Below are positions 1 through 56,317 of a stretch of DNA of 64,000 nucleotides, in pieces. Below the pieces are notes generated by a model that had not been told where the DNA came from, ran no database searches, and saw only the letters and a program-made list of their open reading frames with translations. Source of the stretch: Gemmatimonadales bacterium (GTDB lineage Bacteria; Gemmatimonadota; Gemmatimonadetes; Gemmatimonadales; Gemmatimonadaceae). Numbering within the stretch: the stretch's first letter is position 1; the number at the start of each line of letters is the position of its first letter. The stretch is from positions 9,140 to 73,139 of the forward strand of contig JBBRFQ010000001.1 of NCBI GenBank assembly GCA_038224035.1, in the 5' to 3' direction. The translations under genes and the position numbers were made by a program.

Positions 1-891
1 ACTGCCATCGTCGCCCTTGCGATCGGCCTCGATGAACTGCGCGCTATGACGTGACACAATGCGGTATTCCTTATCGCTCCGCGGCAGCGGAATCGTGAGC
101 GTTTCCCGCTTGTCGGCACTGGTGAAGAGAGCGTTGTCGAGTTCACGCGCCGGGACCAACGTGCGCCCAAGGCGTACCACGAGCAACGCACGCGAGCCCC
201 CTTCCTGCGTGACAATCTTGCGATCCAGCAGGTCCTGCTTGGTGCCGACGACGTAGAACACCCGATTCGCGCTCGTTTCCACCTGGCGCACCGTATCCGT
301 GAGCGCAGCTTTTTCATATACGAGCTGGACATTGGCTTCGCGCAACTGACGCACCTCCGTTTCAAACGCGACAATTTCGCGGTCGCGCATGGCCAGACGT
401 GCCTGCAAATCGTCGAGCAGTTCTGCCGCTGCTGACGATTCGCCCCGCAGGGCGATCAGTGAATCCCGCGTACGCTGCAAGTCCGACTGCCGCGCGCTCA
501 GCCGCTGACGCAGCTGTTTCAGCCGCTCAAGGATGTCCGCGCGGGCAGCGCTGGCCTGAGCCTGTCCGCTTTCATCGCCGGCCTGCGGCTGTACCTTGGA
601 CGTCAATCCACGCACCTGACGCAGCTCGGCATCGATCTGGTCGGCGAATCGGCTGGCATCAACGACCTCAGCGATCGCGCGATCCTTGTCCGCACCCGCC
701 GTTCCCACCAGCTGCGCCAGTGAATCGCGCTCGGCCGTGGCGGCCGCGAGCTCGATCGCGAGACGCTCGGCCTCCGCGATCGCCTTCTTGTCCTGACACG
801 CGCCTGATGAGAGCAGCGCGAGGGCGAGACCCGTGATCCGGAGAGCCAACCGTCGAGAGGGCTGGCGGAAAGACATTTTGTGGTGAACCAT
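1..891 (-). CDS. Coiled-coil lipoprotein, partial (3' end lies beyond the window start)
   Basis: Mirror of 55346..56317. The frame stays open to position 1, and the last 81 nt including the stop are outside the window. The right copy shows a signal peptide with a lipobox-like LLSSGAC, a long Ala/Glu/Arg/Leu-rich coiled-coil segment and a beta-rich C-terminal domain. Confidence 0.6.
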   Translation of the reverse strand, partial: MVHHKMSFRQPSRRLALRITGLALALLSSGACQDKKAIAEAERLAIELAAATAERDSLAQLVGTAGADKDRAIAEVVDASRFADQIDAELRQVRGLTSKVQPQAGDESGQAQASAARADILERLKQLRQRLSARQSDLQRTRDSLIALRGESSAAAELLDDLQARLAMRDREIVAFETEVRQLREANVQLVYEKAALTDTVRQVETSANRVFYVVGTKQDLLDRKIVTQEGGSRALLVVRLGRTLVPARELDNALFTSADKRETLTIPLPRSDKEYRIVSRHSAQFIEADRKGDDGS

Positions 892-1091
892 AGAGTTGGG
901 AGACGGGAGTGTGTGTCCGCATCGCGGTCGTGGCAGGACGCCGCGGCAACCCCGCGAACGTATCGCTCTCGCTTGCGTGATGGAAGTGTCAGCCGTCACC
1001 ACTCCAAAGTCTCGGGCTCGCGAGACGGGAAACAGCCCGCCGCCGCGATCGTCAACGTCAGCACCGGGTACGTCCCGGGGAGAAGACGGAG

Positions 1092-1646
1092 ATGCACACA
1101 AGCTCCCGCACGCGACGGCTGCATGTGTTGATGCTCTCAGGCATGCTGGTGACCGCGTGCCGACACAGCATTCCGGTCGGGACGGCGCCGGCCACGCACC
1201 AGCTTCCGCCGACCGAATCGATAATCCTGCTGATGCCGTTGGTCGAGTCGGACGCAGTGCGGGTGCTCCGGCGCACGATTTTCGAGGCCGGATTGCTCTC
1301 CTCCGTGCAGCACTCCACGGAGCGATGGGTCCGCGTGGATCTCGGCGGCGAAACGGAAGGTGAGCAAACCGTCCGCCAATGGCACGTATTCCTTCGCTAC
1401 GACGAGATGCCATGGGGCGCCACGATGGTCAGCTTGCGCGCCGTGGAGCACAGTATGACCTACCTCGTCAATGAGCGCTCACGGGAGCGTCTGCCTGGAT
1501 TTTCACGCGTGAAGACGGTATCGAATCAGTCGCGCGGCTTGTCGCTGCAAGCGTGGCAGCGCGTGGAGCAGATTGCGGAGGCGCTTGTTGCAAAGGGCGG
1601 TGAGCCGCTGACCGAGTTCGGCGTGCGAACCGCGTTGCGACGATAA
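1092..1646 (+). CDS. Hypothetical lipoprotein (184 aa)
   Basis: The N-terminus MHTSSRTRRLHVLMLSGMLVTAC has a basic n-region, a hydrophobic core and a lipobox Cys. Third-position GC bias is consistent with coding. No recognisable family. Confidence 0.5.
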   Translation: MHTSSRTRRLHVLMLSGMLVTACRHSIPVGTAPATHQLPPTESIILLMPLVESDAVRVLRRTIFEAGLLSSVQHSTERWVRVDLGGETEGEQTVRQWHVFLRYDEMPWGATMVSLRAVEHSMTYLVNERSRERLPGFSRVKTVSNQSRGLSLQAWQRVEQIAEALVAKGGEPLTEFGVRTALRR

Positions 1647-1664
1647 CGTCAGCACTTCCCTTGT

Positions 1665-2108
1665 TTAATGCGAGAGCGGCTCGCACGTGTAGGCGCCGTC
1701 TTCCCAAAGGCCTCGCCGTCCGTAGCGATCCTCGCGTTGCACATCAAACTCGAGCCACACCGTGTCGCCGCGAGGCATCCTCGCGCGGAGCGCATCACGC
1801 GAGCGCACGCCAAAGGCCCCTTGGTCCATTTCGGGTGCGTCGAGCAGCAGCAGACGCACACGCTGAATATCGCGGCATCGGAACGAGTCACCGTCGCTCA
1901 CCGCCGCGACAACGCACCGAACACGTGTCGACGCGCCGGGCGCACGCTCAGCATCGCGGTTGGCGGGCTTCGACGCTGCCTCGGTGGGTGCATCACGAAA
2001 GGACGCGGCCCGCGGGACCTCGGCGTTCACGTTGGGAGTCGAGTCGCCCGTGCAGGCGCCAACCGCGAGGCAGACCGTGACGCCACTCCGCCTGAACCAG
2101 GCGATCAC
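1665..2108 (-). CDS. Staphylococcal-nuclease (SNase/thermonuclease)-like lipoprotein, short or possibly C-terminally truncated
   Basis: Motifs seen are VSDGDSFRC, VRLLLLDAPE and DRYGRR, preceded by a signal with lipobox (CLAVGAC). I placed the start at a GTG that overlaps the upstream stop (GTGA). The protein ends right after the DRYGR motif and lacks the usual C-terminal helices. Confidence 0.55.
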   Translation of the reverse strand: MIAWFRRSGVTVCLAVGACTGDSTPNVNAEVPRAASFRDAPTEAASKPANRDAERAPGASTRVRCVVAAVSDGDSFRCRDIQRVRLLLLDAPEMDQGAFGVRSRDALRARMPRGDTVWLEFDVQREDRYGRRGLWEDGAYTCEPLSH

Positions 2109-2932
2109 AGCCAGCCTCGCAGGCGATACACTGTGTATCCAACCGCTTCGTGCAGCGCCGCGCGTGTCGCAGTAATGCGTGCGCCTGGCGTGTCGAGCTG
2201 ACTGAAGGACACGTGGCGTGGTGTGGAGGGTGCGCACATGACCGAAACGCCGGTCGCTTCAAGTGTTGCACAGGCGCGCCGCGCGTGCAGCGGATCGGTG
2301 ACGGCCTGCAGGCGAGACCATTGCTGCGTGCGGGCCAGCGCGGCAAACGCGAGACTTTCGTCATGCGTGTTGCGGACGTCGCGCACCACGTGCACTTCGA
2401 CGGCGCCGCCGAGCAGACTCGCAATGCGTTGCTGGTCGGCCACCGTGCTGATCAGGCGGCCGCGCACGTCGCGCACCTGCTCGGACACGACCACATCCCG
2501 AATCCCGAGTCGCTGTGCATCGTCGAGTGCGCTGACGAGTCGGGAGAGTGCCATCTCGCCGATGTGCCCCCCATCAGTCATTGCACCGGAATACACCACG
2601 ATGGCGTCGGCACGCGCGCCCGGCGCGTCGGCGCGCAACAGGCTGCGCACGGGACGCTCGACCAGTGGGGTAAACAGCACGAGCAGCAGCAGAACAGCGG
2701 TGATGCCGGTGACCAGCCACAGCCAACGCGCGGCGCGAGTGGGCGCCAGCAGCGCGCCGAGAACGAGCGCGCCGAGCCGAAGGGCGGTCTCGCCAGCGCC
2801 GGTGGCCAACGCGAGGCCGAGCGTGAGCGCCATCTCCATGGTACCCAGCGCCAACACGGCACCGGCGGCACGCACAAACCAGCCGGACAATCGTCCGGCT
2901 GGCAAGTTCTCGTTCATGGTGTGCCGCGTCAC
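2105..2932 (-). CDS. DUF218 / YdcF-ElyC-like membrane protein
   Basis: N-terminal TM helices are followed by AIVVYSG...THDESL...VTDPLHARRA, which is a DUF218-type pattern. The start overlaps the S9 peptidase stop by 4 nt (GTGA). Confidence 0.6.
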   Translation of the reverse strand: MTRHTMNENLPAGRLSGWFVRAAGAVLALGTMEMALTLGLALATGAGETALRLGALVLGALLAPTRAARWLWLVTGITAVLLLLVLFTPLVERPVRSLLRADAPGARADAIVVYSGAMTDGGHIGEMALSRLVSALDDAQRLGIRDVVVSEQVRDVRGRLISTVADQQRIASLLGGAVEVHVVRDVRNTHDESLAFAALARTQQWSRLQAVTDPLHARRACATLEATGVSVMCAPSTPRHVSFSQLDTPGARITATRAALHEAVGYTVYRLRGWL

Positions 2933-5013
2933 TCCTGCGAGATCGGACCGCCGCCCGGTTTGCCCGGCGGCGCAGTCCAGCGATCAAACCAGCTGCGCAG
3001 GAACGCCTGTGTACGCAGGAAGTTGGACGGCGTGGAGCTGGTCCCGTGCCATTCGTTGTTGAACCGCACCATGGCCGTGGGCACCTTCAGCACCTTGAGC
3101 GCCTCGTAGTACTCCTCCGTCTGCGCCATCGGTGTGCGCAAGTCGTTCACACCGGTCATGAGCATTGTCGGTGTGCGCACGTTGCCGACATACATGAGCG
3201 GAGAGCGGCGCAGATGCTCCGACGGATCGTCCCACGGAAACTTCTCGAAGTTGCGGTACCAGCTGGGTCCGTCCGTGGTACCCACAAAACTCAGCCAATT
3301 TGTCACCGGGCAGTTCGCGCTGGCCGCGGCAAAGCGGTTCGTGTGTCCCACGATCCAGCTGGTGAGCACACCGCCGCCCGAGCATCCGTACACGTACAGA
3401 CGATTACTGTCGATGTAGCCGCGTCCGATTACCGTGTCGACACCGGCCATGAGGTCGTCGTAGTCCTTGCCGGGATACGCATTCTTGATGGCGTTGCCGA
3501 ATGCCGATCCGTAGCCCGTGGAGCCACGCGGATTGGTGTAGAGCGTGACAAATCCGTGCGACGCATGATCCTGACGCGCAAAGCTGAAGCCCACATTGTA
3601 CATGCTATGCGGCCCCCCGTGAATCTCGAGCAGCAACGGATACTTCTTCGAGGCGTCGAAATCCGGTGGCTTGACAATCCACCCCTGAATCTTGAATCCA
3701 TCGACCGACGTGTACCAGATCTCTTCGGTGGTTGCGAGGTCTTTACCGGCGAGCAGGTCGCCGTTGATGTCGGTCAGCGTGTTGATCTTGTCCGGAGTGC
3801 GCACGTCAAACGTGACGATGTCGGTTGGCTTGCTGCTCGTGGAGCGTGTGCCCACCACCAAGCCGAGCGTGCTCATGTCGGATACGTTCAGCATGTGCGC
3901 ACCCTTGGTCACCACGCGGTGCTGTCCGGTGACCGAGACATAGTGCAGGTTACTCGCGCCGTCACTCTGCAGCGTGAAGTACACCCCGCGGTTGTCCGGC
4001 GCCCATGTCAAATCAGCGGGTGAGCGATCGAGGTCCGCGGTGAGCACACGTGATCCACTGCCGTCCACGTTCATGAGGTAGAGCGCCGCGTCCTTCCACG
4101 TGGCATCAGTGGAGTCATACCCCGTATAGGCGATCAATCGTCCGTCCGGCGACGGCGTCGGATTTCCGTCGGGGCCGCGACGCGTGGTGAGCTGATTGAC
4201 CGCACCGCTCGCCACATTCACGCGATAGATGTCCGATTCGCGCCACGCGTACTCCCAGTTCGGGTCGCGGTTTGCGCTGAACAGCAACGCCAGCCCGTCG
4301 GATGTCCACGTACCACCGGTGTGGTTCCATTCGCCGGTGGTGATCTGGCGCGGAGTCCCGCCATCGGCCGACACGACGAACAGATGCGTCACACCATCGG
4401 GAAGAAACCCCTGACGATCCGCACGATAGCGCACCGTCGTGACGACACGCGGGGGTTCGGTCCACTTCGCGCCTTTCGGTGCGGGCGGCATCGACAGATT
4501 CCAGTTCTCGCGCTGGGGCACCTGCATCTGGAACGACAGATGACCGCCGTCCGGCGACCAGTTGATGTCACTCGGCGACTCGACCACTCGCGTGATCTGA
4601 GACGACGCGCCCTCGGCATCCATCCAGCGAACAAAGATCTGCGAGCCGCCAGGCTCGCCCGGCGCGAGATACGCGATGCGCGTGCCGTCGGGCGACCACT
4701 GTGCATTGGAGCCCTTGCTCAGAAACCGGCTGCGCGATCCGTCGGCGTTCATGAGCCACAGCGCCGACTCGCGCTTGTCGTTGATCGCGTCGATCCACGT
4801 TCTGGTGTAGAGAATCTGGCGGCCGTCGGGCGAGAGCGACGGATTGCTTACGTCCTGCCAGTTCATGTAGTCGGCAATCGTCAGGCGATCAGCGCCCGGA
4901 GCGGGCCGAGCCGATGGACCGGATTGCGCCGGCAGCGACGTGCCGGACAGCAACATGAGTCCAAAGAGCCACGCGGTGGTTCGACGCGGGGAAGACGGGG
5001 TGCGGCAGGACAT
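2929..5013 (-). CDS. S9 family serine peptidase (prolyl oligopeptidase / acylaminoacyl-peptidase type) with N-terminal beta-propeller
   Basis: It has the GxSxGG nucleophile elbow (YVYGCSGGGV), TolB-like repeats (SPDG...) and a signal peptide. The start was moved to the ATG (MSCRTPSS) 5 nt downstream of GGAGG. The ORF track start at 5100 is upstream of the signal sequence. Confidence 0.85.
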   Translation of the reverse strand: MSCRTPSSPRRTTAWLFGLMLLSGTSLPAQSGPSARPAPGADRLTIADYMNWQDVSNPSLSPDGRQILYTRTWIDAINDKRESALWLMNADGSRSRFLSKGSNAQWSPDGTRIAYLAPGEPGGSQIFVRWMDAEGASSQITRVVESPSDINWSPDGGHLSFQMQVPQRENWNLSMPPAPKGAKWTEPPRVVTTVRYRADRQGFLPDGVTHLFVVSADGGTPRQITTGEWNHTGGTWTSDGLALLFSANRDPNWEYAWRESDIYRVNVASGAVNQLTTRRGPDGNPTPSPDGRLIAYTGYDSTDATWKDAALYLMNVDGSGSRVLTADLDRSPADLTWAPDNRGVYFTLQSDGASNLHYVSVTGQHRVVTKGAHMLNVSDMSTLGLVVGTRSTSSKPTDIVTFDVRTPDKINTLTDINGDLLAGKDLATTEEIWYTSVDGFKIQGWIVKPPDFDASKKYPLLLEIHGGPHSMYNVGFSFARQDHASHGFVTLYTNPRGSTGYGSAFGNAIKNAYPGKDYDDLMAGVDTVIGRGYIDSNRLYVYGCSGGGVLTSWIVGHTNRFAAASANCPVTNWLSFVGTTDGPSWYRNFEKFPWDDPSEHLRRSPLMYVGNVRTPTMLMTGVNDLRTPMAQTEEYYEALKVLKVPTAMVRFNNEWHGTSSTPSNFLRTQAFLRSWFDRWTAPPGKPGGGPISQE

Positions 5014-5112
5014 GCATTCCTCCGTAGGCGGGCGGACGGGATTGGAACAGCACCAACAACTGAGCGGCATCTCACGGTGCTCCTGACGATATGTCCGCAA
5101 CCCGCGACGCGG

Positions 5113-5472
5113 CTAGTCGCCGCGGTAGACCACGCGAAAACCGCCGGTCTCAGAAATCTCCACGGCGGCGAGTAAAGGCACCTGCTCGCGAAGTTCGTGC
5201 CAGATCCAGACGGCCAGCCGCTCGCTCGTGGGATTCTCGAGTCCGGGTACGTCGTTCAGAAGGCGATGGTCGAGCGCATCGGCGATCGGAGACCACGCGG
5301 TGGCGAGCTCCGCAAAATCGAGGACCCAACCGCTGACCGGATCGATCGGGCCGCGCACGGTCAAGCGGACGCCGAACGTGTGCCCGTGCAGTCGGCCGCA
5401 GGGGTGTCCCTCGGCCACATTCGGGAGCCGACGAGCGCTCGCTAGCGCGAAGTCGGCGGAGAGCTCTGCCAC
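5113..5472 (-). CDS. queD: 6-carboxy-5,6,7,8-tetrahydropterin synthase
   Basis: 119 aa with a CGRLHGHTFGV zinc/His motif and typical QueD size and layout. Confidence 0.85.
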   Translation of the reverse strand: MAELSADFALASARRLPNVAEGHPCGRLHGHTFGVRLTVRGPIDPVSGWVLDFAELATAWSPIADALDHRLLNDVPGLENPTSERLAVWIWHELREQVPLLAAVEISETGGFRVVYRGD

Positions 5473-5489
5473 GGGTGCCGCCGGACCGA

Positions 5490-6164
5490 TCAGGGGCGGC
5501 GATCGGAAACGGAATCGCGCACGGAATCCAGATAGGCGAAGACGCTGTCATAGCGTGATGCCACTCGGTCGCCGTCAACAAGCCGGCGGACGCCTTTCCA
5601 CTGCTTCACCAGTGAAGATCGCGACTGATCAAGCGAACTCTCGATGACCTGCCGCTTGGACGTACTGGCGTGCACAAACCGACCCTCGCCCACATACATG
5701 CCGATGTGGGTGATGCGAGCGCCAGTGCCGAACGTGAGCAGGTCGCCCGGCTTCAGCTGCGAGCGATCCTTGGGAATGGCCCGCCCCATTCGCGCTTGCT
5801 CCTGCGCGGTACGCGGGAGCGAGATGTCGATGGCCGAGAGCACGTACTTGATCAGCGCGCTGCAGTCGAAGCCGCGTGACGGATCATTGCCGCCCAGCAG
5901 ATACTTGATGCCCAACGCGCCCTGTGCCCGGGCGACTACGGAGTCGCGGAGCGCGGAGACCGAGGCGGCCAGCGCCGAAAAGGCTCTCAGTCGCACGCCG
6001 TCGACGGCTACACGTGGCATCGCGTCGGCCATCGTCTCGGCAGCGGCCGCGCGAGTGGTTCCCGATGAGGACGCTTGGGCCTGCACGCGGTTGACCGGTC
6101 CGAGAACGGCGGTCGCAAGAACCACGGAGGCAACGATTTTTCGCGGGCGTGCCAGTAGAGCCAC
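5490..6164 (-). CDS. NlpC/P60 family peptidoglycan endopeptidase (secreted)
   Basis: Signal peptide, catalytic Cys context GFDCSALIKYV and His context HIGMYVGEGRFVHAS. Confidence 0.8.
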   Translation of the reverse strand: MALLARPRKIVASVVLATAVLGPVNRVQAQASSSGTTRAAAAETMADAMPRVAVDGVRLRAFSALAASVSALRDSVVARAQGALGIKYLLGGNDPSRGFDCSALIKYVLSAIDISLPRTAQEQARMGRAIPKDRSQLKPGDLLTFGTGARITHIGMYVGEGRFVHASTSKRQVIESSLDQSRSSLVKQWKGVRRLVDGDRVASRYDSVFAYLDSVRDSVSDRRP

Positions 6165-6295
6165 GTCGGATAATCGGGAAGCAGGGTTTCGGAAACGGTG
6201 ATCGAACGGCGCGCAGGTACGGAGGAGACGATACCCTGCGGCTATTCGAAACTATCCCGAAAGGTATAGTGCGGAGCGGGCGAGCGCGAGCCCGA

Positions 6296-6628
6296 TTACG
6301 CAGTCGCCGCCTCGAGAAGCACCTTTGTGACCCTGCGGTGTGATCCATGCCACACCGGTGCTCCGTCACGGAACACAATTGTCTGCGGAGACTCGTGGCG
6401 AATGCGCAACGATGACTCGATCGCATTGGAAAGCGACCGCTGACTCAGCACATCGACCATGCGCACTGGCACATCCGGGTTGTCGGCGGCGAACGCTTTG
6501 ACTTCCTCCATGGCGATCGCCGAGAGACCGCAAGACGGGCTGTGTTTGAACAGGACCACCAGGCCGTCTTCGGCCAGCACGTCGAGCCAGGGGGAGTCAG
6601 CGGAGTCGGAGAACGGGACGATTGACAT
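6296..6628 (-). CDS. ytxJ: YtxJ-like monothiol thioredoxin-fold protein (bacillithiol-system type)
   Basis: 110 aa. The VVLFKHSPSCGLS motif matches the KHSxxCxxS signature of the YtxJ family, and the size fits. Confidence 0.65.
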   Translation of the reverse strand: MSIVPFSDSADSPWLDVLAEDGLVVLFKHSPSCGLSAIAMEEVKAFAADNPDVPVRMVDVLSQRSLSNAIESSLRIRHESPQTIVFRDGAPVWHGSHRRVTKVLLEAATA

Positions 6629-6655
6629 GCACGAGGGGTAAGAGCGGTTGGTGGC

Positions 6656-7369
6656 GTGAAATGGATGACAACCTTACAGGCCACTAAATTTGACGAACGT
6701 ATCTTTACCCCGGCAACCGGATTAATGCACCGATCCCCCAGAACCAGTTGGCGCACTCGTGTTACGACGACATTCGGCGCGACGCTCTGTTTTTTCACGT
6801 TGCAGGCCGACCGCGTCGCCGCGCAGGATCTGAATAGGCTCGGTCATACGGTCGGTTCCACGAATGCGCCGGTTGAGGTGATTGAGTTTCTCGATTTCGG
6901 CTGTAGCCAGTGTGCGAGTTTCACGGCCCAATCGTTCGGCATGGTGCAGCGCGAGTTCATCAATACGGGGCAGGTGCGCTGGCGGTCCGTCCCCTTCGTT
7001 GGCGGTGCGTTCCGCCACTCCGCCTTCGCGGCGGAGGCTGCGGAGTGCGCGGCCGAACAGGGGCGCTACTTCGCGATGCACGATTCGCTGTTGGCTAGGC
7101 AAAAGCAGTGGGGACGCGTTGGCAAACCCGCGCCCGTGCTGCTTGAGATTGCCCGTTCCATTGGCGCCGACACCGTACAGTTCAACGACTGCGTGCGCAG
7201 CGAACGCATGCGGGCACGCGTGCGGGAGCACAAGGCCGCGGCGCTTGCGCTGCGCGTGTACGGCACCCCGACATTCTTCCTGCAACGCGAGCGGCGCGTG
7301 CTCGGCGCGATTCCTACGGCGCAGTTTCGTGACATTTTGCGCGCTGAAGTGAACGGGATCGGTCGTTAG
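6656..7369 (+). CDS. DsbA-family thiol:disulfide oxidoreductase (thioredoxin fold)
   Basis: CxxC motif FLDFGCSQCASF and the C-terminal YGTPTFFL motif. An alternative start is the ATG at 6725 (MHRSPRTS...). Confidence 0.75.
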   Translation: MKWMTTLQATKFDERIFTPATGLMHRSPRTSWRTRVTTTFGATLCFFTLQADRVAAQDLNRLGHTVGSTNAPVEVIEFLDFGCSQCASFTAQSFGMVQREFINTGQVRWRSVPFVGGAFRHSAFAAEAAECAAEQGRYFAMHDSLLARQKQWGRVGKPAPVLLEIARSIGADTVQFNDCVRSERMRARVREHKAAALALRVYGTPTFFLQRERRVLGAIPTAQFRDILRAEVNGIGR

Positions 7370-7511
7370 CTCGCGCCTCACTCCACGCTATGCGTTGCTG
7401 AGGTCTACCGCGAGTCGTAGCGCCCGAGCGAATGACCGCGGTCGGCAGCGGTCGGCGGGGGAGATCAATCCCCCGTGACGAACGGATTCGCGCCGACTGC
7501 GTACTCGCAGT

Positions 7512-10571: not shown

Positions 10572-10758
10572 GCTGGCGAGGTGCTGGAGCGCGTCACACC
10601 ACTCAGCCGGGGGACAGCAGACGCTGTCCTCCGGTGATTTGTCTTTTGACTTCTTCATTCGAGAGCCGCGCCGCACGATGCGCTTGCCCGACGCATCCAC
10701 TTCGCGCATCGTTCGAAAGTGTCAGTGCGTCAGCGCCTCACTCCTACCCATTGCTCGC

Positions 10759-11721: not shown

Positions 11722-11759
11722 CAGGCCGACCGGCACACCGTCGCTTCCTCCTCAATATC

Positions 11760-13379: not shown

Positions 13380-13425
13380 GTGGAGATGCTGAGGAGGAAT
13401 CGGCAACCTTGACGGCATTCTTCCC

Positions 13426-13449
13426 TTGACTTAGTTTGTTGACTAAGTC
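13426..13449. promoter_or_regulatory. Putative toxin-antitoxin operator/promoter: 8-bp inverted repeat GACTTAGT-N6-ACTAAGTC with two TTGACT boxes
   Basis: Perfect inverted repeat at 13428-13435 and 13442-13449, immediately upstream of the antitoxin ATG. TA antitoxins commonly autoregulate through such palindromes. Confidence 0.35.
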
Positions 13450-13453
13450 TTAC

Positions 13454-42783: not shown

Positions 42784-42787
42784 GTAA

Positions 42788-42811: not shown

Positions 42812-42857
42812 GGGAAGAATGCCGTCAAGGTTGCCGATTCCTCCTCAGCATCTCCAC

Positions 42858-44477: not shown

Positions 44478-44515
44478 GATATTGAGGAGGAAGCGACGGT
44501 GTGCCGGTCGGCCTG

Positions 44516-45478: not shown

Positions 45479-45665
45479 GCGAGCAATGGGTAGGAGTGAG
45501 GCGCTGACGCACTGACACTTTCGAACGATGCGCGAAGTGGATGCGTCGGGCAAGCGCATCGTGCGGCGCGGCTCTCGAATGAAGAAGTCAAAAGACAAAT
45601 CACCGGAGGACAGCGTCTGCTGTCCCCCGGCTGAGTGGTGTGACGCGCTCCAGCACCTCGCCAGC

Positions 45666-48725: not shown

Positions 48726-48867
48726 ACTGCGAGTACGCAGTCGGCGCGAATCCGTTCGTCACGGGGGATTGATCTCCCCCGCCGACCGCTGCCGACCGCG
48801 GTCATTCGCTCGGGCGCTACGACTCGCGGTAGACCTCAGCAACGCATAGCGTGGAGTGAGGCGCGAG

Positions 48868-49581
48868 CTAACGACCGATCCCGTTCACTTCAGCGCGCAA
48901 AATGTCACGAAACTGCGCCGTAGGAATCGCGCCGAGCACGCGCCGCTCGCGTTGCAGGAAGAATGTCGGGGTGCCGTACACGCGCAGCGCAAGCGCCGCG
49001 GCCTTGTGCTCCCGCACGCGTGCCCGCATGCGTTCGCTGCGCACGCAGTCGTTGAACTGTACGGTGTCGGCGCCAATGGAACGGGCAATCTCAAGCAGCA
49101 CGGGCGCGGGTTTGCCAACGCGTCCCCACTGCTTTTGCCTAGCCAACAGCGAATCGTGCATCGCGAAGTAGCGCCCCTGTTCGGCCGCGCACTCCGCAGC
49201 CTCCGCCGCGAAGGCGGAGTGGCGGAACGCACCGCCAACGAAGGGGACGGACCGCCAGCGCACCTGCCCCGTATTGATGAACTCGCGCTGCACCATGCCG
49301 AACGATTGGGCCGTGAAACTCGCACACTGGCTACAGCCGAAATCGAGAAACTCAATCACCTCAACCGGCGCATTCGTGGAACCGACCGTATGACCGAGCC
49401 TATTCAGATCCTGCGCGGCGACGCGGTCGGCCTGCAACGTGAAAAAACAGAGCGTCGCGCCGAATGTCGTCGTAACACGAGTGCGCCAACTGGTTCTGGG
49501 GGATCGGTGCATTAATCCGGTTGCCGGGGTAAAGATACGTTCGTCAAATTTAGTGGCCTGTAAGGTTGTCATCCATTTCAC
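48868..49581 (-). CDS. DsbA-family oxidoreductase (mirror copy)
   Basis: Exact mirror of 6656..7369. Confidence 0.75.
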   Translation of the reverse strand: MKWMTTLQATKFDERIFTPATGLMHRSPRTSWRTRVTTTFGATLCFFTLQADRVAAQDLNRLGHTVGSTNAPVEVIEFLDFGCSQCASFTAQSFGMVQREFINTGQVRWRSVPFVGGAFRHSAFAAEAAECAAEQGRYFAMHDSLLARQKQWGRVGKPAPVLLEIARSIGADTVQFNDCVRSERMRARVREHKAAALALRVYGTPTFFLQRERRVLGAIPTAQFRDILRAEVNGIGR

Positions 49582-49608
49582 GCCACCAACCGCTCTTACC
49601 CCTCGTGC

Positions 49609-49941
49609 ATGTCAATCGTCCCGTTCTCCGACTCCGCTGACTCCCCCTGGCTCGACGTGCTGGCCGAAGACGGCCTGGTGGTCCTGTTCAAACACAGCCC
49701 GTCTTGCGGTCTCTCGGCGATCGCCATGGAGGAAGTCAAAGCGTTCGCCGCCGACAACCCGGATGTGCCAGTGCGCATGGTCGATGTGCTGAGTCAGCGG
49801 TCGCTTTCCAATGCGATCGAGTCATCGTTGCGCATTCGCCACGAGTCTCCGCAGACAATTGTGTTCCGTGACGGAGCACCGGTGTGGCATGGATCACACC
49901 GCAGGGTCACAAAGGTGCTTCTCGAGGCGGCGACTGCGTAA
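49609..49941 (+). CDS. ytxJ: YtxJ-like thioredoxin-fold protein (mirror copy)
   Basis: Exact mirror of 6296..6628. Confidence 0.65.
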   Translation: MSIVPFSDSADSPWLDVLAEDGLVVLFKHSPSCGLSAIAMEEVKAFAADNPDVPVRMVDVLSQRSLSNAIESSLRIRHESPQTIVFRDGAPVWHGSHRRVTKVLLEAATA

Positions 49942-50072
49942 TCGGGCTCGCGCTCGCCCGCTCCGCACTATACCTTTCGGGATAGTTTCGAATAGCCGCA
50001 GGGTATCGTCTCCTCCGTACCTGCGCGCCGTTCGATCACCGTTTCCGAAACCCTGCTTCCCGATTATCCGAC

Positions 50073-50747
50073 GTGGCTCTACTGGCACGCCCGCGAAAAA
50101 TCGTTGCCTCCGTGGTTCTTGCGACCGCCGTTCTCGGACCGGTCAACCGCGTGCAGGCCCAAGCGTCCTCATCGGGAACCACTCGCGCGGCCGCTGCCGA
50201 GACGATGGCCGACGCGATGCCACGTGTAGCCGTCGACGGCGTGCGACTGAGAGCCTTTTCGGCGCTGGCCGCCTCGGTCTCCGCGCTCCGCGACTCCGTA
50301 GTCGCCCGGGCACAGGGCGCGTTGGGCATCAAGTATCTGCTGGGCGGCAATGATCCGTCACGCGGCTTCGACTGCAGCGCGCTGATCAAGTACGTGCTCT
50401 CGGCCATCGACATCTCGCTCCCGCGTACCGCGCAGGAGCAAGCGCGAATGGGGCGGGCCATTCCCAAGGATCGCTCGCAGCTGAAGCCGGGCGACCTGCT
50501 CACGTTCGGCACTGGCGCTCGCATCACCCACATCGGCATGTATGTGGGCGAGGGTCGGTTTGTGCACGCCAGTACGTCCAAGCGGCAGGTCATCGAGAGT
50601 TCGCTTGATCAGTCGCGATCTTCACTGGTGAAGCAGTGGAAAGGCGTCCGCCGGCTTGTTGACGGCGACCGAGTGGCATCACGCTATGACAGCGTCTTCG
50701 CCTATCTGGATTCCGTGCGCGATTCCGTTTCCGATCGCCGCCCCTGA
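50073..50747 (+). CDS. NlpC/P60 endopeptidase (mirror copy)
   Basis: Exact mirror of 5490..6164. Confidence 0.8.
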   Translation: MALLARPRKIVASVVLATAVLGPVNRVQAQASSSGTTRAAAAETMADAMPRVAVDGVRLRAFSALAASVSALRDSVVARAQGALGIKYLLGGNDPSRGFDCSALIKYVLSAIDISLPRTAQEQARMGRAIPKDRSQLKPGDLLTFGTGARITHIGMYVGEGRFVHASTSKRQVIESSLDQSRSSLVKQWKGVRRLVDGDRVASRYDSVFAYLDSVRDSVSDRRP

Positions 50748-50764
50748 TCGGTCCGGCGGCACCC

Positions 50765-51124
50765 GTGGCAGAGCTCTCCGCCGACTTCGCGCTAGCGAGC
50801 GCTCGTCGGCTCCCGAATGTGGCCGAGGGACACCCCTGCGGCCGACTGCACGGGCACACGTTCGGCGTCCGCTTGACCGTGCGCGGCCCGATCGATCCGG
50901 TCAGCGGTTGGGTCCTCGATTTTGCGGAGCTCGCCACCGCGTGGTCTCCGATCGCCGATGCGCTCGACCATCGCCTTCTGAACGACGTACCCGGACTCGA
51001 GAATCCCACGAGCGAGCGGCTGGCCGTCTGGATCTGGCACGAACTTCGCGAGCAGGTGCCTTTACTCGCCGCCGTGGAGATTTCTGAGACCGGCGGTTTT
51101 CGCGTGGTCTACCGCGGCGACTAG
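50765..51124 (+). CDS. queD: 6-carboxytetrahydropterin synthase (mirror copy)
   Basis: Exact mirror of 5113..5472. Confidence 0.85.
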   Translation: MAELSADFALASARRLPNVAEGHPCGRLHGHTFGVRLTVRGPIDPVSGWVLDFAELATAWSPIADALDHRLLNDVPGLENPTSERLAVWIWHELREQVPLLAAVEISETGGFRVVYRGD

Positions 51125-51223
51125 CCGCGTCGCGGGTTGCGGACATATCGTCAGGAGCACCGTGAGATGCCGCTCAGTTGTTGGTGCTGTTCCAATCCCG
51201 TCCGCCCGCCTACGGAGGAATGC

Positions 51224-53308
51224 ATGTCCTGCCGCACCCCGTCTTCCCCGCGTCGAACCACCGCGTGGCTCTTTGGACTCATGTTGCTGTCCGGCACGTC
51301 GCTGCCGGCGCAATCCGGTCCATCGGCTCGGCCCGCTCCGGGCGCTGATCGCCTGACGATTGCCGACTACATGAACTGGCAGGACGTAAGCAATCCGTCG
51401 CTCTCGCCCGACGGCCGCCAGATTCTCTACACCAGAACGTGGATCGACGCGATCAACGACAAGCGCGAGTCGGCGCTGTGGCTCATGAACGCCGACGGAT
51501 CGCGCAGCCGGTTTCTGAGCAAGGGCTCCAATGCACAGTGGTCGCCCGACGGCACGCGCATCGCGTATCTCGCGCCGGGCGAGCCTGGCGGCTCGCAGAT
51601 CTTTGTTCGCTGGATGGATGCCGAGGGCGCGTCGTCTCAGATCACGCGAGTGGTCGAGTCGCCGAGTGACATCAACTGGTCGCCGGACGGCGGTCATCTG
51701 TCGTTCCAGATGCAGGTGCCCCAGCGCGAGAACTGGAATCTGTCGATGCCGCCCGCACCGAAAGGCGCGAAGTGGACCGAACCCCCGCGTGTCGTCACGA
51801 CGGTGCGCTATCGTGCGGATCGTCAGGGGTTTCTTCCCGATGGTGTGACGCATCTGTTCGTCGTGTCGGCCGATGGCGGGACTCCGCGCCAGATCACCAC
51901 CGGCGAATGGAACCACACCGGTGGTACGTGGACATCCGACGGGCTGGCGTTGCTGTTCAGCGCAAACCGCGACCCGAACTGGGAGTACGCGTGGCGCGAA
52001 TCGGACATCTATCGCGTGAATGTGGCGAGCGGTGCGGTCAATCAGCTCACCACGCGTCGCGGCCCCGACGGAAATCCGACGCCGTCGCCGGACGGACGAT
52101 TGATCGCCTATACGGGGTATGACTCCACTGATGCCACGTGGAAGGACGCGGCGCTCTACCTCATGAACGTGGACGGCAGTGGATCACGTGTGCTCACCGC
52201 GGACCTCGATCGCTCACCCGCTGATTTGACATGGGCGCCGGACAACCGCGGGGTGTACTTCACGCTGCAGAGTGACGGCGCGAGTAACCTGCACTATGTC
52301 TCGGTCACCGGACAGCACCGCGTGGTGACCAAGGGTGCGCACATGCTGAACGTATCCGACATGAGCACGCTCGGCTTGGTGGTGGGCACACGCTCCACGA
52401 GCAGCAAGCCAACCGACATCGTCACGTTTGACGTGCGCACTCCGGACAAGATCAACACGCTGACCGACATCAACGGCGACCTGCTCGCCGGTAAAGACCT
52501 CGCAACCACCGAAGAGATCTGGTACACGTCGGTCGATGGATTCAAGATTCAGGGGTGGATTGTCAAGCCACCGGATTTCGACGCCTCGAAGAAGTATCCG
52601 TTGCTGCTCGAGATTCACGGGGGGCCGCATAGCATGTACAATGTGGGCTTCAGCTTTGCGCGTCAGGATCATGCGTCGCACGGATTTGTCACGCTCTACA
52701 CCAATCCGCGTGGCTCCACGGGCTACGGATCGGCATTCGGCAACGCCATCAAGAATGCGTATCCCGGCAAGGACTACGACGACCTCATGGCCGGTGTCGA
52801 CACGGTAATCGGACGCGGCTACATCGACAGTAATCGTCTGTACGTGTACGGATGCTCGGGCGGCGGTGTGCTCACCAGCTGGATCGTGGGACACACGAAC
52901 CGCTTTGCCGCGGCCAGCGCGAACTGCCCGGTGACAAATTGGCTGAGTTTTGTGGGTACCACGGACGGACCCAGCTGGTACCGCAACTTCGAGAAGTTTC
53001 CGTGGGACGATCCGTCGGAGCATCTGCGCCGCTCTCCGCTCATGTATGTCGGCAACGTGCGCACACCGACAATGCTCATGACCGGTGTGAACGACTTGCG
53101 CACACCGATGGCGCAGACGGAGGAGTACTACGAGGCGCTCAAGGTGCTGAAGGTGCCCACGGCCATGGTGCGGTTCAACAACGAATGGCACGGGACCAGC
53201 TCCACGCCGTCCAACTTCCTGCGTACACAGGCGTTCCTGCGCAGCTGGTTTGATCGCTGGACTGCGCCGCCGGGCAAACCGGGCGGCGGTCCGATCTCGC
53301 AGGAGTGA
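51224..53308 (+). CDS. S9 family serine peptidase (mirror copy)
   Basis: Exact mirror of 2929..5013. GGAGG at 51214-51218 precedes the ATG at 51224. Confidence 0.85.
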   Translation: MSCRTPSSPRRTTAWLFGLMLLSGTSLPAQSGPSARPAPGADRLTIADYMNWQDVSNPSLSPDGRQILYTRTWIDAINDKRESALWLMNADGSRSRFLSKGSNAQWSPDGTRIAYLAPGEPGGSQIFVRWMDAEGASSQITRVVESPSDINWSPDGGHLSFQMQVPQRENWNLSMPPAPKGAKWTEPPRVVTTVRYRADRQGFLPDGVTHLFVVSADGGTPRQITTGEWNHTGGTWTSDGLALLFSANRDPNWEYAWRESDIYRVNVASGAVNQLTTRRGPDGNPTPSPDGRLIAYTGYDSTDATWKDAALYLMNVDGSGSRVLTADLDRSPADLTWAPDNRGVYFTLQSDGASNLHYVSVTGQHRVVTKGAHMLNVSDMSTLGLVVGTRSTSSKPTDIVTFDVRTPDKINTLTDINGDLLAGKDLATTEEIWYTSVDGFKIQGWIVKPPDFDASKKYPLLLEIHGGPHSMYNVGFSFARQDHASHGFVTLYTNPRGSTGYGSAFGNAIKNAYPGKDYDDLMAGVDTVIGRGYIDSNRLYVYGCSGGGVLTSWIVGHTNRFAAASANCPVTNWLSFVGTTDGPSWYRNFEKFPWDDPSEHLRRSPLMYVGNVRTPTMLMTGVNDLRTPMAQTEEYYEALKVLKVPTAMVRFNNEWHGTSSTPSNFLRTQAFLRSWFDRWTAPPGKPGGGPISQE

Positions 53309-54132
53309 CGCGGCACACCATGAACGAGAACTTGCCAGCCGGACGATTGTCCGGCTGGTTTGTGCGTGCCGCCGGTGCCGTGTTGGCGCTGGGTACCATG
53401 GAGATGGCGCTCACGCTCGGCCTCGCGTTGGCCACCGGCGCTGGCGAGACCGCCCTTCGGCTCGGCGCGCTCGTTCTCGGCGCGCTGCTGGCGCCCACTC
53501 GCGCCGCGCGTTGGCTGTGGCTGGTCACCGGCATCACCGCTGTTCTGCTGCTGCTCGTGCTGTTTACCCCACTGGTCGAGCGTCCCGTGCGCAGCCTGTT
53601 GCGCGCCGACGCGCCGGGCGCGCGTGCCGACGCCATCGTGGTGTATTCCGGTGCAATGACTGATGGGGGGCACATCGGCGAGATGGCACTCTCCCGACTC
53701 GTCAGCGCACTCGACGATGCACAGCGACTCGGGATTCGGGATGTGGTCGTGTCCGAGCAGGTGCGCGACGTGCGCGGCCGCCTGATCAGCACGGTGGCCG
53801 ACCAGCAACGCATTGCGAGTCTGCTCGGCGGCGCCGTCGAAGTGCACGTGGTGCGCGACGTCCGCAACACGCATGACGAAAGTCTCGCGTTTGCCGCGCT
53901 GGCCCGCACGCAGCAATGGTCTCGCCTGCAGGCCGTCACCGATCCGCTGCACGCGCGGCGCGCCTGTGCAACACTTGAAGCGACCGGCGTTTCGGTCATG
54001 TGCGCACCCTCCACACCACGCCACGTGTCCTTCAGTCAGCTCGACACGCCAGGCGCACGCATTACTGCGACACGCGCGGCGCTGCACGAAGCGGTTGGAT
54101 ACACAGTGTATCGCCTGCGAGGCTGGCTGTGA
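53305..54132 (+). CDS. DUF218/YdcF-like membrane protein (mirror copy)
   Basis: Exact mirror of 2105..2932. The GTG start overlaps the S9 TGA stop. Confidence 0.6.
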   Translation: MTRHTMNENLPAGRLSGWFVRAAGAVLALGTMEMALTLGLALATGAGETALRLGALVLGALLAPTRAARWLWLVTGITAVLLLLVLFTPLVERPVRSLLRADAPGARADAIVVYSGAMTDGGHIGEMALSRLVSALDDAQRLGIRDVVVSEQVRDVRGRLISTVADQQRIASLLGGAVEVHVVRDVRNTHDESLAFAALARTQQWSRLQAVTDPLHARRACATLEATGVSVMCAPSTPRHVSFSQLDTPGARITATRAALHEAVGYTVYRLRGWL

Positions 54133-54572
54133 TCGCCTGGTTCAGGCGGAGTGGCGTCACGGTCTGCCTCGCGGTTGGCGCCTGCACGGGCGACTCGACT
54201 CCCAACGTGAACGCCGAGGTCCCGCGGGCCGCGTCCTTTCGTGATGCACCCACCGAGGCAGCGTCGAAGCCCGCCAACCGCGATGCTGAGCGTGCGCCCG
54301 GCGCGTCGACACGTGTTCGGTGCGTTGTCGCGGCGGTGAGCGACGGTGACTCGTTCCGATGCCGCGATATTCAGCGTGTGCGTCTGCTGCTGCTCGACGC
54401 ACCCGAAATGGACCAAGGGGCCTTTGGCGTGCGCTCGCGTGATGCGCTCCGCGCGAGGATGCCTCGCGGCGACACGGTGTGGCTCGAGTTTGATGTGCAA
54501 CGCGAGGATCGCTACGGACGGCGAGGCCTTTGGGAAGACGGCGCCTACACGTGCGAGCCGCTCTCGCATTAA
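54129..54572 (+). CDS. SNase-like lipoprotein, short (mirror copy)
   Basis: Exact mirror of 1665..2108. The GTG at 54129 overlaps the TGA at 54130-54132. Confidence 0.55.
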   Translation: MIAWFRRSGVTVCLAVGACTGDSTPNVNAEVPRAASFRDAPTEAASKPANRDAERAPGASTRVRCVVAAVSDGDSFRCRDIQRVRLLLLDAPEMDQGAFGVRSRDALRARMPRGDTVWLEFDVQREDRYGRRGLWEDGAYTCEPLSH

Positions 54573-54590
54573 ACAAGGGAAGTGCTGACG

Positions 54591-55145
54591 TTATCGTCGC
54601 AACGCGGTTCGCACGCCGAACTCGGTCAGCGGCTCACCGCCCTTTGCAACAAGCGCCTCCGCAATCTGCTCCACGCGCTGCCACGCTTGCAGCGACAAGC
54701 CGCGCGACTGATTCGATACCGTCTTCACGCGTGAAAATCCAGGCAGACGCTCCCGTGAGCGCTCATTGACGAGGTAGGTCATACTGTGCTCCACGGCGCG
54801 CAAGCTGACCATCGTGGCGCCCCATGGCATCTCGTCGTAGCGAAGGAATACGTGCCATTGGCGGACGGTTTGCTCACCTTCCGTTTCGCCGCCGAGATCC
54901 ACGCGGACCCATCGCTCCGTGGAGTGCTGCACGGAGGAGAGCAATCCGGCCTCGAAAATCGTGCGCCGGAGCACCCGCACTGCGTCCGACTCGACCAACG
55001 GCATCAGCAGGATTATCGATTCGGTCGGCGGAAGCTGGTGCGTGGCCGGCGCCGTCCCGACCGGAATGCTGTGTCGGCACGCGGTCACCAGCATGCCTGA
55101 GAGCATCAACACATGCAGCCGTCGCGTGCGGGAGCTTGTGTGCAT
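54591..55145 (-). CDS. Hypothetical lipoprotein 184 aa (mirror copy)
   Basis: Exact mirror of 1092..1646. Confidence 0.5.
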   Translation of the reverse strand: MHTSSRTRRLHVLMLSGMLVTACRHSIPVGTAPATHQLPPTESIILLMPLVESDAVRVLRRTIFEAGLLSSVQHSTERWVRVDLGGETEGEQTVRQWHVFLRYDEMPWGATMVSLRAVEHSMTYLVNERSRERLPGFSRVKTVSNQSRGLSLQAWQRVEQIAEALVAKGGEPLTEFGVRTALRR

Positions 55146-55345
55146 CTCCGTCTTCTCCCCGGGACGTACCCGGTGCTGACGTTGACGATCGCGGCGGCGG
55201 GCTGTTTCCCGTCTCGCGAGCCCGAGACTTTGGAGTGGTGACGGCTGACACTTCCATCACGCAAGCGAGAGCGATACGTTCGCGGGGTTGCCGCGGCGTC
55301 CTGCCACGACCGCGATGCGGACACACACTCCCGTCTCCCAACTCT

Positions 55346-56317
55346 ATGGTTCACCACAAAATGTCTTTCCGCCAGCCCTCTCGACGGTTGGCTCTCCGGA
55401 TCACGGGTCTCGCCCTCGCGCTGCTCTCATCAGGCGCGTGTCAGGACAAGAAGGCGATCGCGGAGGCCGAGCGTCTCGCGATCGAGCTCGCGGCCGCCAC
55501 GGCCGAGCGCGATTCACTGGCGCAGCTGGTGGGAACGGCGGGTGCGGACAAGGATCGCGCGATCGCTGAGGTCGTTGATGCCAGCCGATTCGCCGACCAG
55601 ATCGATGCCGAGCTGCGTCAGGTGCGTGGATTGACGTCCAAGGTACAGCCGCAGGCCGGCGATGAAAGCGGACAGGCTCAGGCCAGCGCTGCCCGCGCGG
55701 ACATCCTTGAGCGGCTGAAACAGCTGCGTCAGCGGCTGAGCGCGCGGCAGTCGGACTTGCAGCGTACGCGGGATTCACTGATCGCCCTGCGGGGCGAATC
55801 GTCAGCAGCGGCAGAACTGCTCGACGATTTGCAGGCACGTCTGGCCATGCGCGACCGCGAAATTGTCGCGTTTGAAACGGAGGTGCGTCAGTTGCGCGAA
55901 GCCAATGTCCAGCTCGTATATGAAAAAGCTGCGCTCACGGATACGGTGCGCCAGGTGGAAACGAGCGCGAATCGGGTGTTCTACGTCGTCGGCACCAAGC
56001 AGGACCTGCTGGATCGCAAGATTGTCACGCAGGAAGGGGGCTCGCGTGCGTTGCTCGTGGTACGCCTTGGGCGCACGTTGGTCCCGGCGCGTGAACTCGA
56101 CAACGCTCTCTTCACCAGTGCCGACAAGCGGGAAACGCTCACGATTCCGCTGCCGCGGAGCGATAAGGAATACCGCATTGTGTCACGTCATAGCGCGCAG
56201 TTCATCGAGGCCGATCGCAAGGGCGACGATGGCAGTTTTCGGGGCGCGAGTATTCGCATCACCGACCCGAACGCGTTCTGGGCTGCGTCGCCCTACCTGA
56301 TCATCGTCGAGAAGTAA
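55346..56317 (+). CDS. Coiled-coil lipoprotein (complete copy; crosses the apparent palindrome end at 56236)
   Basis: Start at ATG 55346 (MVHHKMSFRQPSRRLALRITGLALALLSSGAC) or 55361. It has a long coiled-coil segment and then a beta-rich C-terminal domain (VFYVVGTKQDLLDRKIVTQEGG...). The track ORF start at 54824 is an Arg-rich 5' extension that overlaps the neighbouring gene and was rejected. Confidence 0.65.
   Translation: MVHHKMSFRQPSRRLALRITGLALALLSSGACQDKKAIAEAERLAIELAAATAERDSLAQLVGTAGADKDRAIAEVVDASRFADQIDAELRQVRGLTSKVQPQAGDESGQAQASAARADILERLKQLRQRLSARQSDLQRTRDSLIALRGESSAAAELLDDLQARLAMRDREIVAFETEVRQLREANVQLVYEKAALTDTVRQVETSANRVFYVVGTKQDLLDRKIVTQEGGSRALLVVRLGRTLVPARELDNALFTSADKRETLTIPLPRSDKEYRIVSRHSAQFIEADRKGDDGSFRGASIRITDPNAFWAASPYLIIVEK

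Follow-up and report, generated by a model that had tools for sequence, protein, structure and literature searches.

A public 74.5-kb MAG contig from the Gemmatimonadaceae appears to hold at least 28 kb of its sequence twice, the second time as the mirror image of the first. The stretch of DNA analysed here, 64,000 nucleotides in all and hereafter called the window, contains the axis of this giant palindrome. The question it raises is whether the mirror image is part of the genome of a bacterium or arose when the DNA of that bacterium was sequenced and assembled. The answer has practical consequences, in that an artefact would inflate genome size, estimates of duplication and contamination, paralogue counts and pangenome content, and would leave the true neighbour of the mirrored genes (encoding PEP-CTERM, OpuAC and EgtB proteins) on another contig. 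A real structure, on the other hand, would give a rare view of how a hairpin seeds a giant palindrome in an uncultured bacterium.

Extent and Gene Content of the Mirrored Region

The sequence-only reading of this DNA had described a perfect, spacer-less palindrome covering positions 1 to 56236 and had proposed that the window be compared with its own reverse complement. I have made that comparison, setting each position x against the complement of position 56237-x, and it yielded 0 mismatches in 28,118 pairs. At the axis, C28118 is paired with G28119, leaving no spacer. Perfection and the absence of a spacer are therefore upheld, but position 56236 cannot stand as the end of the palindrome, since it merely mirrors the first position of the window and marks neither a junction nor a boundary. 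The start of the window truncates the left arm, and the size of 56.2 kb is accordingly a lower bound. An independent Logan contig from run SRR19962010 (L052) is colinear with window positions 53225..62334 and continues unbroken across 56236/56237, and by this colinearity no outer junction of a duplication is found within the window. Two points are absent from the earlier reading: that the size of the palindrome is bounded by the edge of the window, and that its axis falls exactly on a native 36-bp perfect palindrome. The coordinates of all features are collected in Table 1.

Table 1. Features of the window around the axis of the giant palindrome. Positions are those of the window; a dot marks features without a strand.
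Feature	Position	Strand	Remarks
Left arm of giant palindrome	1..28118	+	0 mismatches to mirror; gene content from Pfam/NCBIfam; truncated by window start
GNAT acetyltransferase gene, 183 aa	27547..28098	+	Pfam PF00583; last native gene before hairpin
Extended inverted repeat, 52 bp	28093..28144	.	Common to 97%-identical conspecific contigs (blastn end points: L044, L045, L046, L050, L051)
Native perfect palindrome P, 36 bp, AAACGGCCGCCGGAACAC/GTGTTCCGGCGGCCGTTT	28101..28136	.	Centred on the axis of the giant palindrome
Right arm of giant palindrome	28119..56236	-	Exact reverse complement of 1..28118
False (or novel) junction	28137..28144	.	Window GTTCAGGA versus same-strain native ATTCAGAA, then TGTGGCACGAGCTCAGGACACG into the 3' end of the PEP-CTERM gene
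Mirror copy of GNAT gene	28139..28690	-	In right arm of giant palindrome
Native continuation of right arm	56237..64000	.	559-aa protein, DUF983, beta-carbonic anhydrase, phosphodiesterase-family protein, others

Genes were assigned by matching long open reading frames to Pfam and NCBIfam, a GC3-based call having proved not to be discriminating. The left arm carries about 26-28 ordinary chromosomal genes, amongst them those for QueD, QueE and QueC, S9 and M28 peptidases, TerC, agmatine deiminase, a TetR regulator, a CN hydrolase resembling N-carbamoylputrescine amidase, a MOFRL glycerate kinase, a peroxiredoxin, a glycine-zipper protein and the GNAT acetyltransferase. Their order is conserved in other Gemmatimonadaceae MAGs, and the exact GNAT product is present in two Logan contigs. 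No plasmid, phage, partition or resolvase/protelomerase gene was found by Pfam and NCBIfam among the open reading frames of the window, whose DNA is the ordinary chromosome of an uncultured Gemmatimonadaceae bacterium. A scan of GTDB genomes with the glycerate kinase brought up relatives with at most 79% amino-acid identity and no member of the species itself. In the closest of the GTDB relatives (L003), OpuAC directly follows GNAT, with neither the PEP-CTERM gene nor the hairpin described below.

The Hairpin at the Axis and the Native Sequence beyond It

I will refer to the native locus as U-P-D, where U is the arm of the window that ends with the GNAT gene, P is the 36-bp palindrome and D is the downstream side. 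D consists of a PEP-CTERM gene convergent with GNAT, followed by OpuAC/permease, an ABC ATPase and EgtB, and of these the PEP-CTERM, OpuAC and EgtB genes are absent from the window.

P lies 2-38 nt past the stop codon of GNAT, between that gene and the convergent PEP-CTERM gene. No other perfect palindrome in the 39.7 kb of reconstructed native sequence is as long: amongst about 39,700 possible centres, that of P has a half-length of 18 (the next has 9). Its fold as RNA is highly stable (-42.1 kcal/mol, z = -7.3). In the window's own strain, to judge from the contigs that carry D, the perfect palindrome amounts to 36 bp, and the relatives at 97% identity show a 52-bp repeat. The conspecific contigs have T at position 28118, which places one central mismatch in the 52-bp repeat, and the alignment of the window with them ends at 28144. 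The hairpin is found also in a relative of 74% identity (L043), with one compensatory change of A:T to C:G. That compensatory pair and the position between convergent genes suggest that selection maintains a hairpin in the RNA or the DNA, for instance a terminator. As a terminator should be, P is a stable, GC-rich stem-loop, situated immediately after convergent stop codons and conserved in relatives. A terminator should also have a run of T after the stem on the transcribed strand; what follows the stem here is only TTTGTT or TTTATT, with AACAAA upstream, and a search of L044 for consensus terminators left the hairpin uncalled. P probably acts as a bidirectional terminator.

What follows P in nature can be read from related sequences. 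All five of the conspecific contigs, about 97% identical to the window, read U-P-D and lose their match to the window at axis+26. One is from NCBI (L044, GCA_964616475.1), three from JGI (L045, L050 and L051) and one from Logan (L046, SRR6448205), and the five may not be fully independent, several coming from one JGI project series. A scan of JGI with a 39-nt exact pattern of U plus P produced no match; one that fixed the stems of the hairpin and left the loop open produced two more conspecific contigs and one unrelated locus. For the strain of the window itself, the junction was read by comparing the window with the reverse complement of the tails of two Logan contigs, L047 and L048, and the divergence begins at position 28137 (A instead of G).

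In the deposited data, going by cluster metadata, proteins of the window, from both arm and flank, lie on an NCBI contig of 74,514 bp and proteins of D on a separate NCBI contig of 42,932 bp. If both contigs belong to one assembly, this suggests that U and D were left unjoined there. Each length is an even number, as it must be for a spacer-less palindrome spanning a whole contig, which is no more than a weak hint.

Contig Ends within the Palindrome at k = 31

The Logan graphs, built at k = 31, break at P in an informative way. In run SRR19962010, contig L001 is 100% identical to window positions 26276..28130 and ends 30 nt into P. The contigs that carry D (L047 from the same run, L048 from SRR19962013) start at the equivalent of position 28107 and so cover 30 nt of P from the D side. 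The link of D to P is present, then, in the very run that gives a 100% match to the window, and in SRR19962013 besides. At k = 31, ends that reach 30 nt into P from both sides are the pattern predicted when U and the reverse complement of D, rc(D), run into a shared perfect palindrome of 32 bp or more. A genome with U-P-rc(U) alone is predicted to give a contig end at axis+15, and the end observed is at axis+12.

Contig L046, also from Logan, provides a like-for-like control: with its one central mismatch (T at 28118), it passes through P unbroken. Breakage in the Logan graphs is limited to the strain with the perfect centre (L001, L047 and L048), and the variant with one mismatch is read through in 5 of 5 contigs. 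The locus also serves as a worked example of how one base decides what a graph assembler does at a natural hairpin, probably a terminator: a perfect centre breaks or folds, and a centre with one mismatch passes. At k = 31, however, a graph of U-P-D is indistinguishable from one of the pair U-P-rc(U) and rc(D)-P-D, and for that reason the Logan contigs show the link of D to P in the sample without formally excluding fold-back molecules.

Possible Origins of the Mirror Image

Considering all of these observations, the giant palindrome is very probably an artefact of sequencing or assembly and not a structure of the genome, so that the genes that seem duplicated would be single-copy. The sequence-only reading had taken a chimeric read or contig, with single-copy genes, as its default, and that view is favoured by the five conspecific contigs and by D in the same run, all of which leave P into other native sequence. 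Such an artefact should show identical arms, another native sequence in independent assemblies and a junction at a feature that misleads assemblers or primes snap-back, here a perfect palindrome no shorter than k, and all of these are found. The lack of any divergence between the arms is explained if both represent one dataset read twice. The path taken in the deposited 74.5-kb contig would have led into P from U and out along rc(U) instead of D, giving U-P-rc(U). Within a perfect palindrome longer than k, k-mers would be identical to their own reverse complements, and U, rc(U), D and rc(D) would all meet at a single P node, where an assembler could turn around. The coincidence of the axis with the exact centre of the native palindrome speaks for an event seeded by the palindrome and against a fold at a random fragment end (template/complement fold-back), which was rejected on that account.

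I infer that the deposited contig originated either by a graph error or by physical snap-back during library preparation or amplification, the graph error being the more likely of these sub-mechanisms. Most modern metagenome assemblers finish at values of k greater than 36, at which a 36-bp palindrome is no longer ambiguous, and a pure graph route therefore needs carry-over from a smaller k or low coverage. It is possible, if rather doubtful, that the fold-backs were real DNA molecules, formed in vitro and assembled faithfully, which is still an artefact. They could have formed where a single-stranded end snapped back at the hairpin and was filled in during end repair, by multiple-displacement amplification, or as chimeras of SMRTbell or nanopore libraries. 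Self-priming predicts that the axis should fall on a hairpin loop, and here it falls on that of a very stable hairpin (-42 kcal/mol). Long-read data are documented to contain fold-back or inverted-repeat chimeras (PMC12870357, PMC13141652), and in ligation nanopore libraries no false chimera is commoner than the inverted-repeat kind, which makes up 0.18-7.33% of reads (PMC13141652). Structure-specific artefacts at inverted repeats reportedly arise in short-read libraries as well (PMC10908179). Nevertheless, only the strain with the perfect centre broke or folded, and a mismatch in the loop should be irrelevant to snap-back but decisive for k-mer graphs. Nor can a single chimeric molecule alone yield an arm of at least 28 kb, unless the assembler walks back along U.

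It is quite improbable that the palindrome is real, that is, a very recent inverted duplication of at least 56 kb in a subpopulation of environmental Gemmatimonadaceae, caught before divergence or remodelling. Such a duplication might arise where the chromosome breaks or stalls at P: a nascent strand or broken end could snap back at the 36-bp hairpin and copy U in reverse, or hairpin-capped ends left by a break could be replicated to give U-P-rc(U), possibly along with the reciprocal rc(D)-P-D. Palindrome formation in vivo starts at such hairpins, and the axis coincides with the strongest native hairpin, which puts a short inverted repeat of native origin at the centre. Zero divergence fits a recent event, the k = 31 contigs are formally compatible with the two products U-P-rc(U) and rc(D)-P-D, and the NCBI contigs of 74,514 and 42,932 bp are both of even length. 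Against this, every one of the conspecific contigs has the U-P-D arrangement, D is linked to P in the same run, and the window contains no outer junction. A perfect palindrome of this size (at least 56 kb) should be unstable in bacteria, this one would have to dominate an environmental population in order to be assembled, and the same appearance is documented as an artefact of assemblers and libraries.

The sequence-only reading had also entertained a linear replicon whose covalently closed hairpin telomere was read through. P would then be the target of a telomere resolvase. Formally, a spacer-less palindrome centred on an inverted repeat of 36-52 bp is what a replicated or read-through telomere looks like, and U-P-D in the relatives could be regarded as an uncut site. 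A telomere requires the sequence to end at the centre, but the sequence is continuous across P in the five conspecific contigs, its continuation D is present in them and in the same run, and the hairpin recurs in the 74%-identical L043. P, moreover, stands between convergent housekeeping genes and shows the compensatory change of A:T to C:G; the gene order is that of the chromosome of other Gemmatimonadaceae; and Pfam and NCBIfam found no protelomerase, partition, phage or plasmid gene among the open reading frames of the window. The GC-rich centre of P would also set it apart from known resolvase sites, whose centres are AT-rich. The telomere can be considered effectively excluded.

Comparison with known systems draws the same distinctions. 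The short native inverted repeat at the exact centre recalls the symmetrical tandem-inversion duplications of Salmonella and palindromes seeded by short inverted repeats, and Tanaka et al. in 2002 reportedly described palindromic amplification with seeds of this kind. Unlike snap-back duplications in vivo, the present case is known from sequence alone, and the native arrangement occurs both in this sample and in every conspecific contig. Hairpin telomeres (Borrelia, phage N15, the linear chromosome of Agrobacterium) share the spacer-less palindrome on read-through and a palindromic site of about 36-52 bp, but here the context is one of chromosomal housekeeping genes, relatives read continuously across the site, no resolvase gene was found in the window and the hairpin is GC-rich and of the terminator type. 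Template/complement read-through folds at a random fragment end, whereas here the axis is the centre of the longest native palindrome, and individual nanopore, PacBio or MDA fold-back reads differ from an arm of at least 28 kb with 0 mismatches, which represents an assembly consensus. There is a likeness also to palindromic contigs made by de Bruijn graph assemblers, which have exact mirror halves with every gene duplicated in reverse complement and identical DNA; the present arms likewise show zero divergence, and the length of the source contig is even. Whole-contig perfect palindromes in SPAdes short-read assemblies of M. bovis (PMC9455707) and palindromic contigs in single-cell assemblies (bioRxiv 10.1101/2023.06.06.543983) were both put down by their authors to errors of assembly. 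No seed is described in either report, whereas in the present case the turn-around is mapped to a native 36-bp palindrome and the missing continuation has been recovered.

Extent of the palindrome

Each base of 1..28118 was checked against the complement of the base at 56237-x, its mirror, and none of the 28,118 pairs is mismatched. There is no spacer at the axis, where C28118 is paired with G28119. The palindrome is real as a sequence and cannot be the product of chance. The sequence-only reading had described it as perfect, spacer-less, and 56.2 kb long. The first two properties hold over the full comparison, but the length is a lower bound, since the window start cuts the left arm and 56236 is only the mirror of window position 1. 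An independent 9,110-bp short-read contig from Logan (assemblies of SRA runs), L052 from run SRR19962010, is colinear with 53225..62334 and runs uninterrupted over 56236|56237, and exact-sequence look-ups place arm proteins, GNAT among them, and proteins of the supposed flank together on one 74,514-bp NCBI contig, of which the window is a 64-kb portion.

L052 and the window disagree at 22 of 9,110 positions, 20 of them in 56237..62334, although L052 shares its run with L001, a contig identical to the window over 26276..28130. The differences suggest either a mixture of close strains in the sample or an NCBI contig built as a strain consensus.

Positions of genes, matches and palindrome features in the window
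Feature	Position	Mirror position or remark
queD	5113..5472	
103-aa ORF	13436..13747	
PIN-domain toxin gene (Pfam PF01850)	13728..14129	
PIN/103-aa ORF pair	13436-14129	42108-42801
queE	14141..14785	
queC ORF	14782..15567 (-)	
M28 peptidase ORF	15386..16882 (+)	
Match to L001	26276..28130	100% identical; end at axis+12
GNAT gene	27547..28098 (+)	28139..28690 (-)
GNAT stop codon (TGA)	28096-28098	
Native palindrome P	28101..28136	36 bp
Start of L047 and L048	28107	window orientation
Axis	28118|28119	
Fold-back junction	28136|28137	28100|28101 on the other strand
End of match to five conspecific contigs	28144	axis+26
Match to L052	53225..62334	

The hairpin at the axis and the native arrangement

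The axis lies 20 nt beyond the stop codon of the GNAT gene that ends the window arm (U), within AAACGGCCGCCGGAACAC|GTGTTCCGGCGGCCGTTT, at the centre of a short perfect palindrome (P). Every fold-back yields a short palindrome at its own centre, and for that reason independent proof of a native P was needed. The same hairpin is found between the same convergent genes in L043, a related contig 74% identical (L043:9250-9420), with a compensatory change from A:T to C:G at 28101:28136, the outermost pair of P. Contigs that are about 97% identical, and conspecific, have T at 28118, a difference confined to the loop that puts a single mismatch at the exact centre. Folded as RNA, P reaches -42.1 kcal/mol (z = -7.3 versus shuffles). 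It is presumably a bidirectional terminator-type hairpin; a simple consensus terminator scan did not call it.

The same 14-bp stems (ACGGCCGCCGGAAC ... GTTCCGGCGGCCGT) enclose a different 4-nt loop at L049:152-183, in an 847,761-bp JGI contig (Ga0209930_1000034), immediately 3' of a stop codon and with flanks unrelated to the window locus. Such a hairpin may recur in this lineage as a terminator or REP-like element. The 12-mer GGCCGCCGGAAC has no other copy in the window.

The OpuAC/permease fusion, the gene after GNAT in the nearest relative, served as a query for conspecific sequence and recovered the contigs of about 97% identity: L044 (NCBI GCA_964616475.1), L045 (JGI 3300020192) and L046 (Logan SRR6448205). 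A pattern scan of JGI metagenomes added L050 and L051. Each of the five follows the window past GNAT and across the hairpin as far as 28144, and then enters the far side (D): a convergent 243-aa PEP-CTERM gene, OpuAC/permease, an ABC ATPase, EgtB and a methyltransferase. The window lacks all of these genes, and tblastn against it gave no match. With D beyond the hairpin in every conspecific contig, the native order is U-P-D; the window has instead U-P-rc(U), the arm followed by its own reverse complement.

The exact GNAT protein of the window is encoded on two Logan contigs, one of them L001 (SRR19962010). In Logan assemblies, which use k=31, a unitig entering a perfect palindrome from its flank has to end at the last k-mer that holds a flank base, 30 nt in, and a genome with the giant palindrome alone would be predicted to give a contig end at axis+15. 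The end of L001 at axis+12 predicts a native perfect palindrome with exactly the limits of P, along with a second contig arriving from the opposite flank. Such contigs were found, L047 (SRR19962010) and L048 (SRR19962013), both carrying ABC ATPase-OpuAC-PEP-CTERM, both terminating in CCGCCGGAACACGTGTTCCGGCGG, and in window orientation reading ...GGCCGTTT|ATTCAGAATGTGGCACGAGCTCAGGACACG. C28100 does not pair with A28137, which limits the perfect palindrome of this strain to 36 bp, matching the prediction. C28100 with A28137 is the native signature and C28100 with G28137 that of the fold-back. As a control, L046, likewise from Logan at k=31 and with a one-mismatch centre, is continuous through U-P-D.

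The two GNAT-bearing Logan contigs, though from different runs, start at most 6 nt apart (26276-26282), inside the peroxiredoxin gene. The shared start is probably a k-mer branch from a conserved motif common to other members of the community.

Origin of the fold

In a 39.7-kb native reconstruction (right arm, flank and D), no other perfect palindrome comes near P in length (half-length 18, as against 9 for the next), and the giant palindrome has its axis exactly at the centre of P. The chance that a fold-back from a random fragment end would land there is about 1 in 40,000, and that origin is rejected; P was therefore the seed of the event. Folding exactly at P could come about in three ways: (a) a graph assembler might reverse where k-mers are their own reverse complements; (b) the hairpin might snap back and be filled in in vitro, giving chimeric molecules; or (c) the snap-back might take place in vivo.

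An artefact, by (a) and (b) taken jointly, is very probably what the window holds. It is favored by the native order in five of five conspecific contigs and by the joining of D to P in SRR19962010, the very run that supplied the 100%-identical contig, and both support the default of the sequence-only reading, a chimera of single-copy genes. It is also favored by the zero difference between the arms and, provided that the contig belongs to the same assembly, by the occurrence of D-side proteins, among them a 240-aa PEP-CTERM protein, on a separate 42,932-bp NCBI contig, which suggests that U and D were left unjoined. Such objects are, moreover, on record: 81 whole-contig perfect palindromes from SPAdes assemblies in a study of M. 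bovis (PMC9455707), and others from single-cell assemblies (bioRxiv 10.1101/2023.06.06.543983), were deemed assembly errors, ligation nanopore libraries contain inverted-repeat chimeras at 0.18-7.33% of reads (PMC13141652), and fold-backs are a documented kind of chimeric long read (PMC12870357). Route (c) would mean that part of the population has a real inverted duplication, recently primed at the hairpin. At k=31 a graph looks the same for U-P-D as for U-P-rc(U) together with rc(D)-P-D, and the Logan contigs fit the latter pair too, but I consider a duplication in vivo improbable. The run and assembly accessions gave no hits in a literature search. The sequence-only reading had also offered a hairpin telomere, which is effectively excluded by the continuity of sequence across P in conspecifics, the conservation of P in a distant relative, again flanked by convergent housekeeping genes, the chromosomal synteny of the window genes, and the lack of a resolvase gene in the window.

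Between the two artefactual routes I lean towards the graph. Breakage is confined to the strain with the perfect centre (three Logan contigs), whose NCBI contig is the folded one, whereas the variant with the loop mismatch was assembled straight through in five of five contigs. A loop mismatch is without effect on formation of the physical hairpin but decisive in k-mer graphs. Both NCBI contigs have even lengths. A spacer-less palindrome that fills its contig always has one, but two even lengths would also arise by chance in one case out of four, and this is no more than a hint.

Gene content and chromosomal setting

Genes within 1..56236 should be treated as single-copy, and the only sequence without support from an independent assembly is the fold-back junction. 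What the long ORFs encode is ordinary for a chromosome: QueD/PTPS, QueE, QueC, S9 and M28 peptidases, an NlpC/P60 protein, a DsbA-like protein, an amidohydrolase, a PIN toxin, TerC, an outer-membrane beta-barrel protein, agmatine deiminase, CN hydrolase, TetR, MOFRL glycerate kinase, peroxiredoxin, a glycine-zipper protein and GNAT acetyltransferase, with DUF983, beta-carbonic anhydrase and a phosphodiesterase-family protein in the right-hand part of the window. No phage, plasmid, transposase or telomere-resolvase genes were seen among them. When one genome per species was scanned, the nearest relatives proved to be MAGs of Gemmatimonadaceae and Gemmatimonadales, which keep the order QueE-QueC-M28-TerC-OMP-...-AgmDeim-CNhyd-TetR-GlyK-Prx-GlyZip-GNAT.

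The PIN toxin gene overlaps the end of the 103-aa ORF upstream of it, and the pair, which lies between the amidohydrolase gene and queE, looks like an inserted VapBC-type toxin-antitoxin module. The queuosine-precursor genes queD, queE and queC are all present, not all of them adjacent. The QueC and M28 ORFs, mechanically called, have about 180 nt in common where their 5' ends meet, so at least one of the listed starts is too far upstream.
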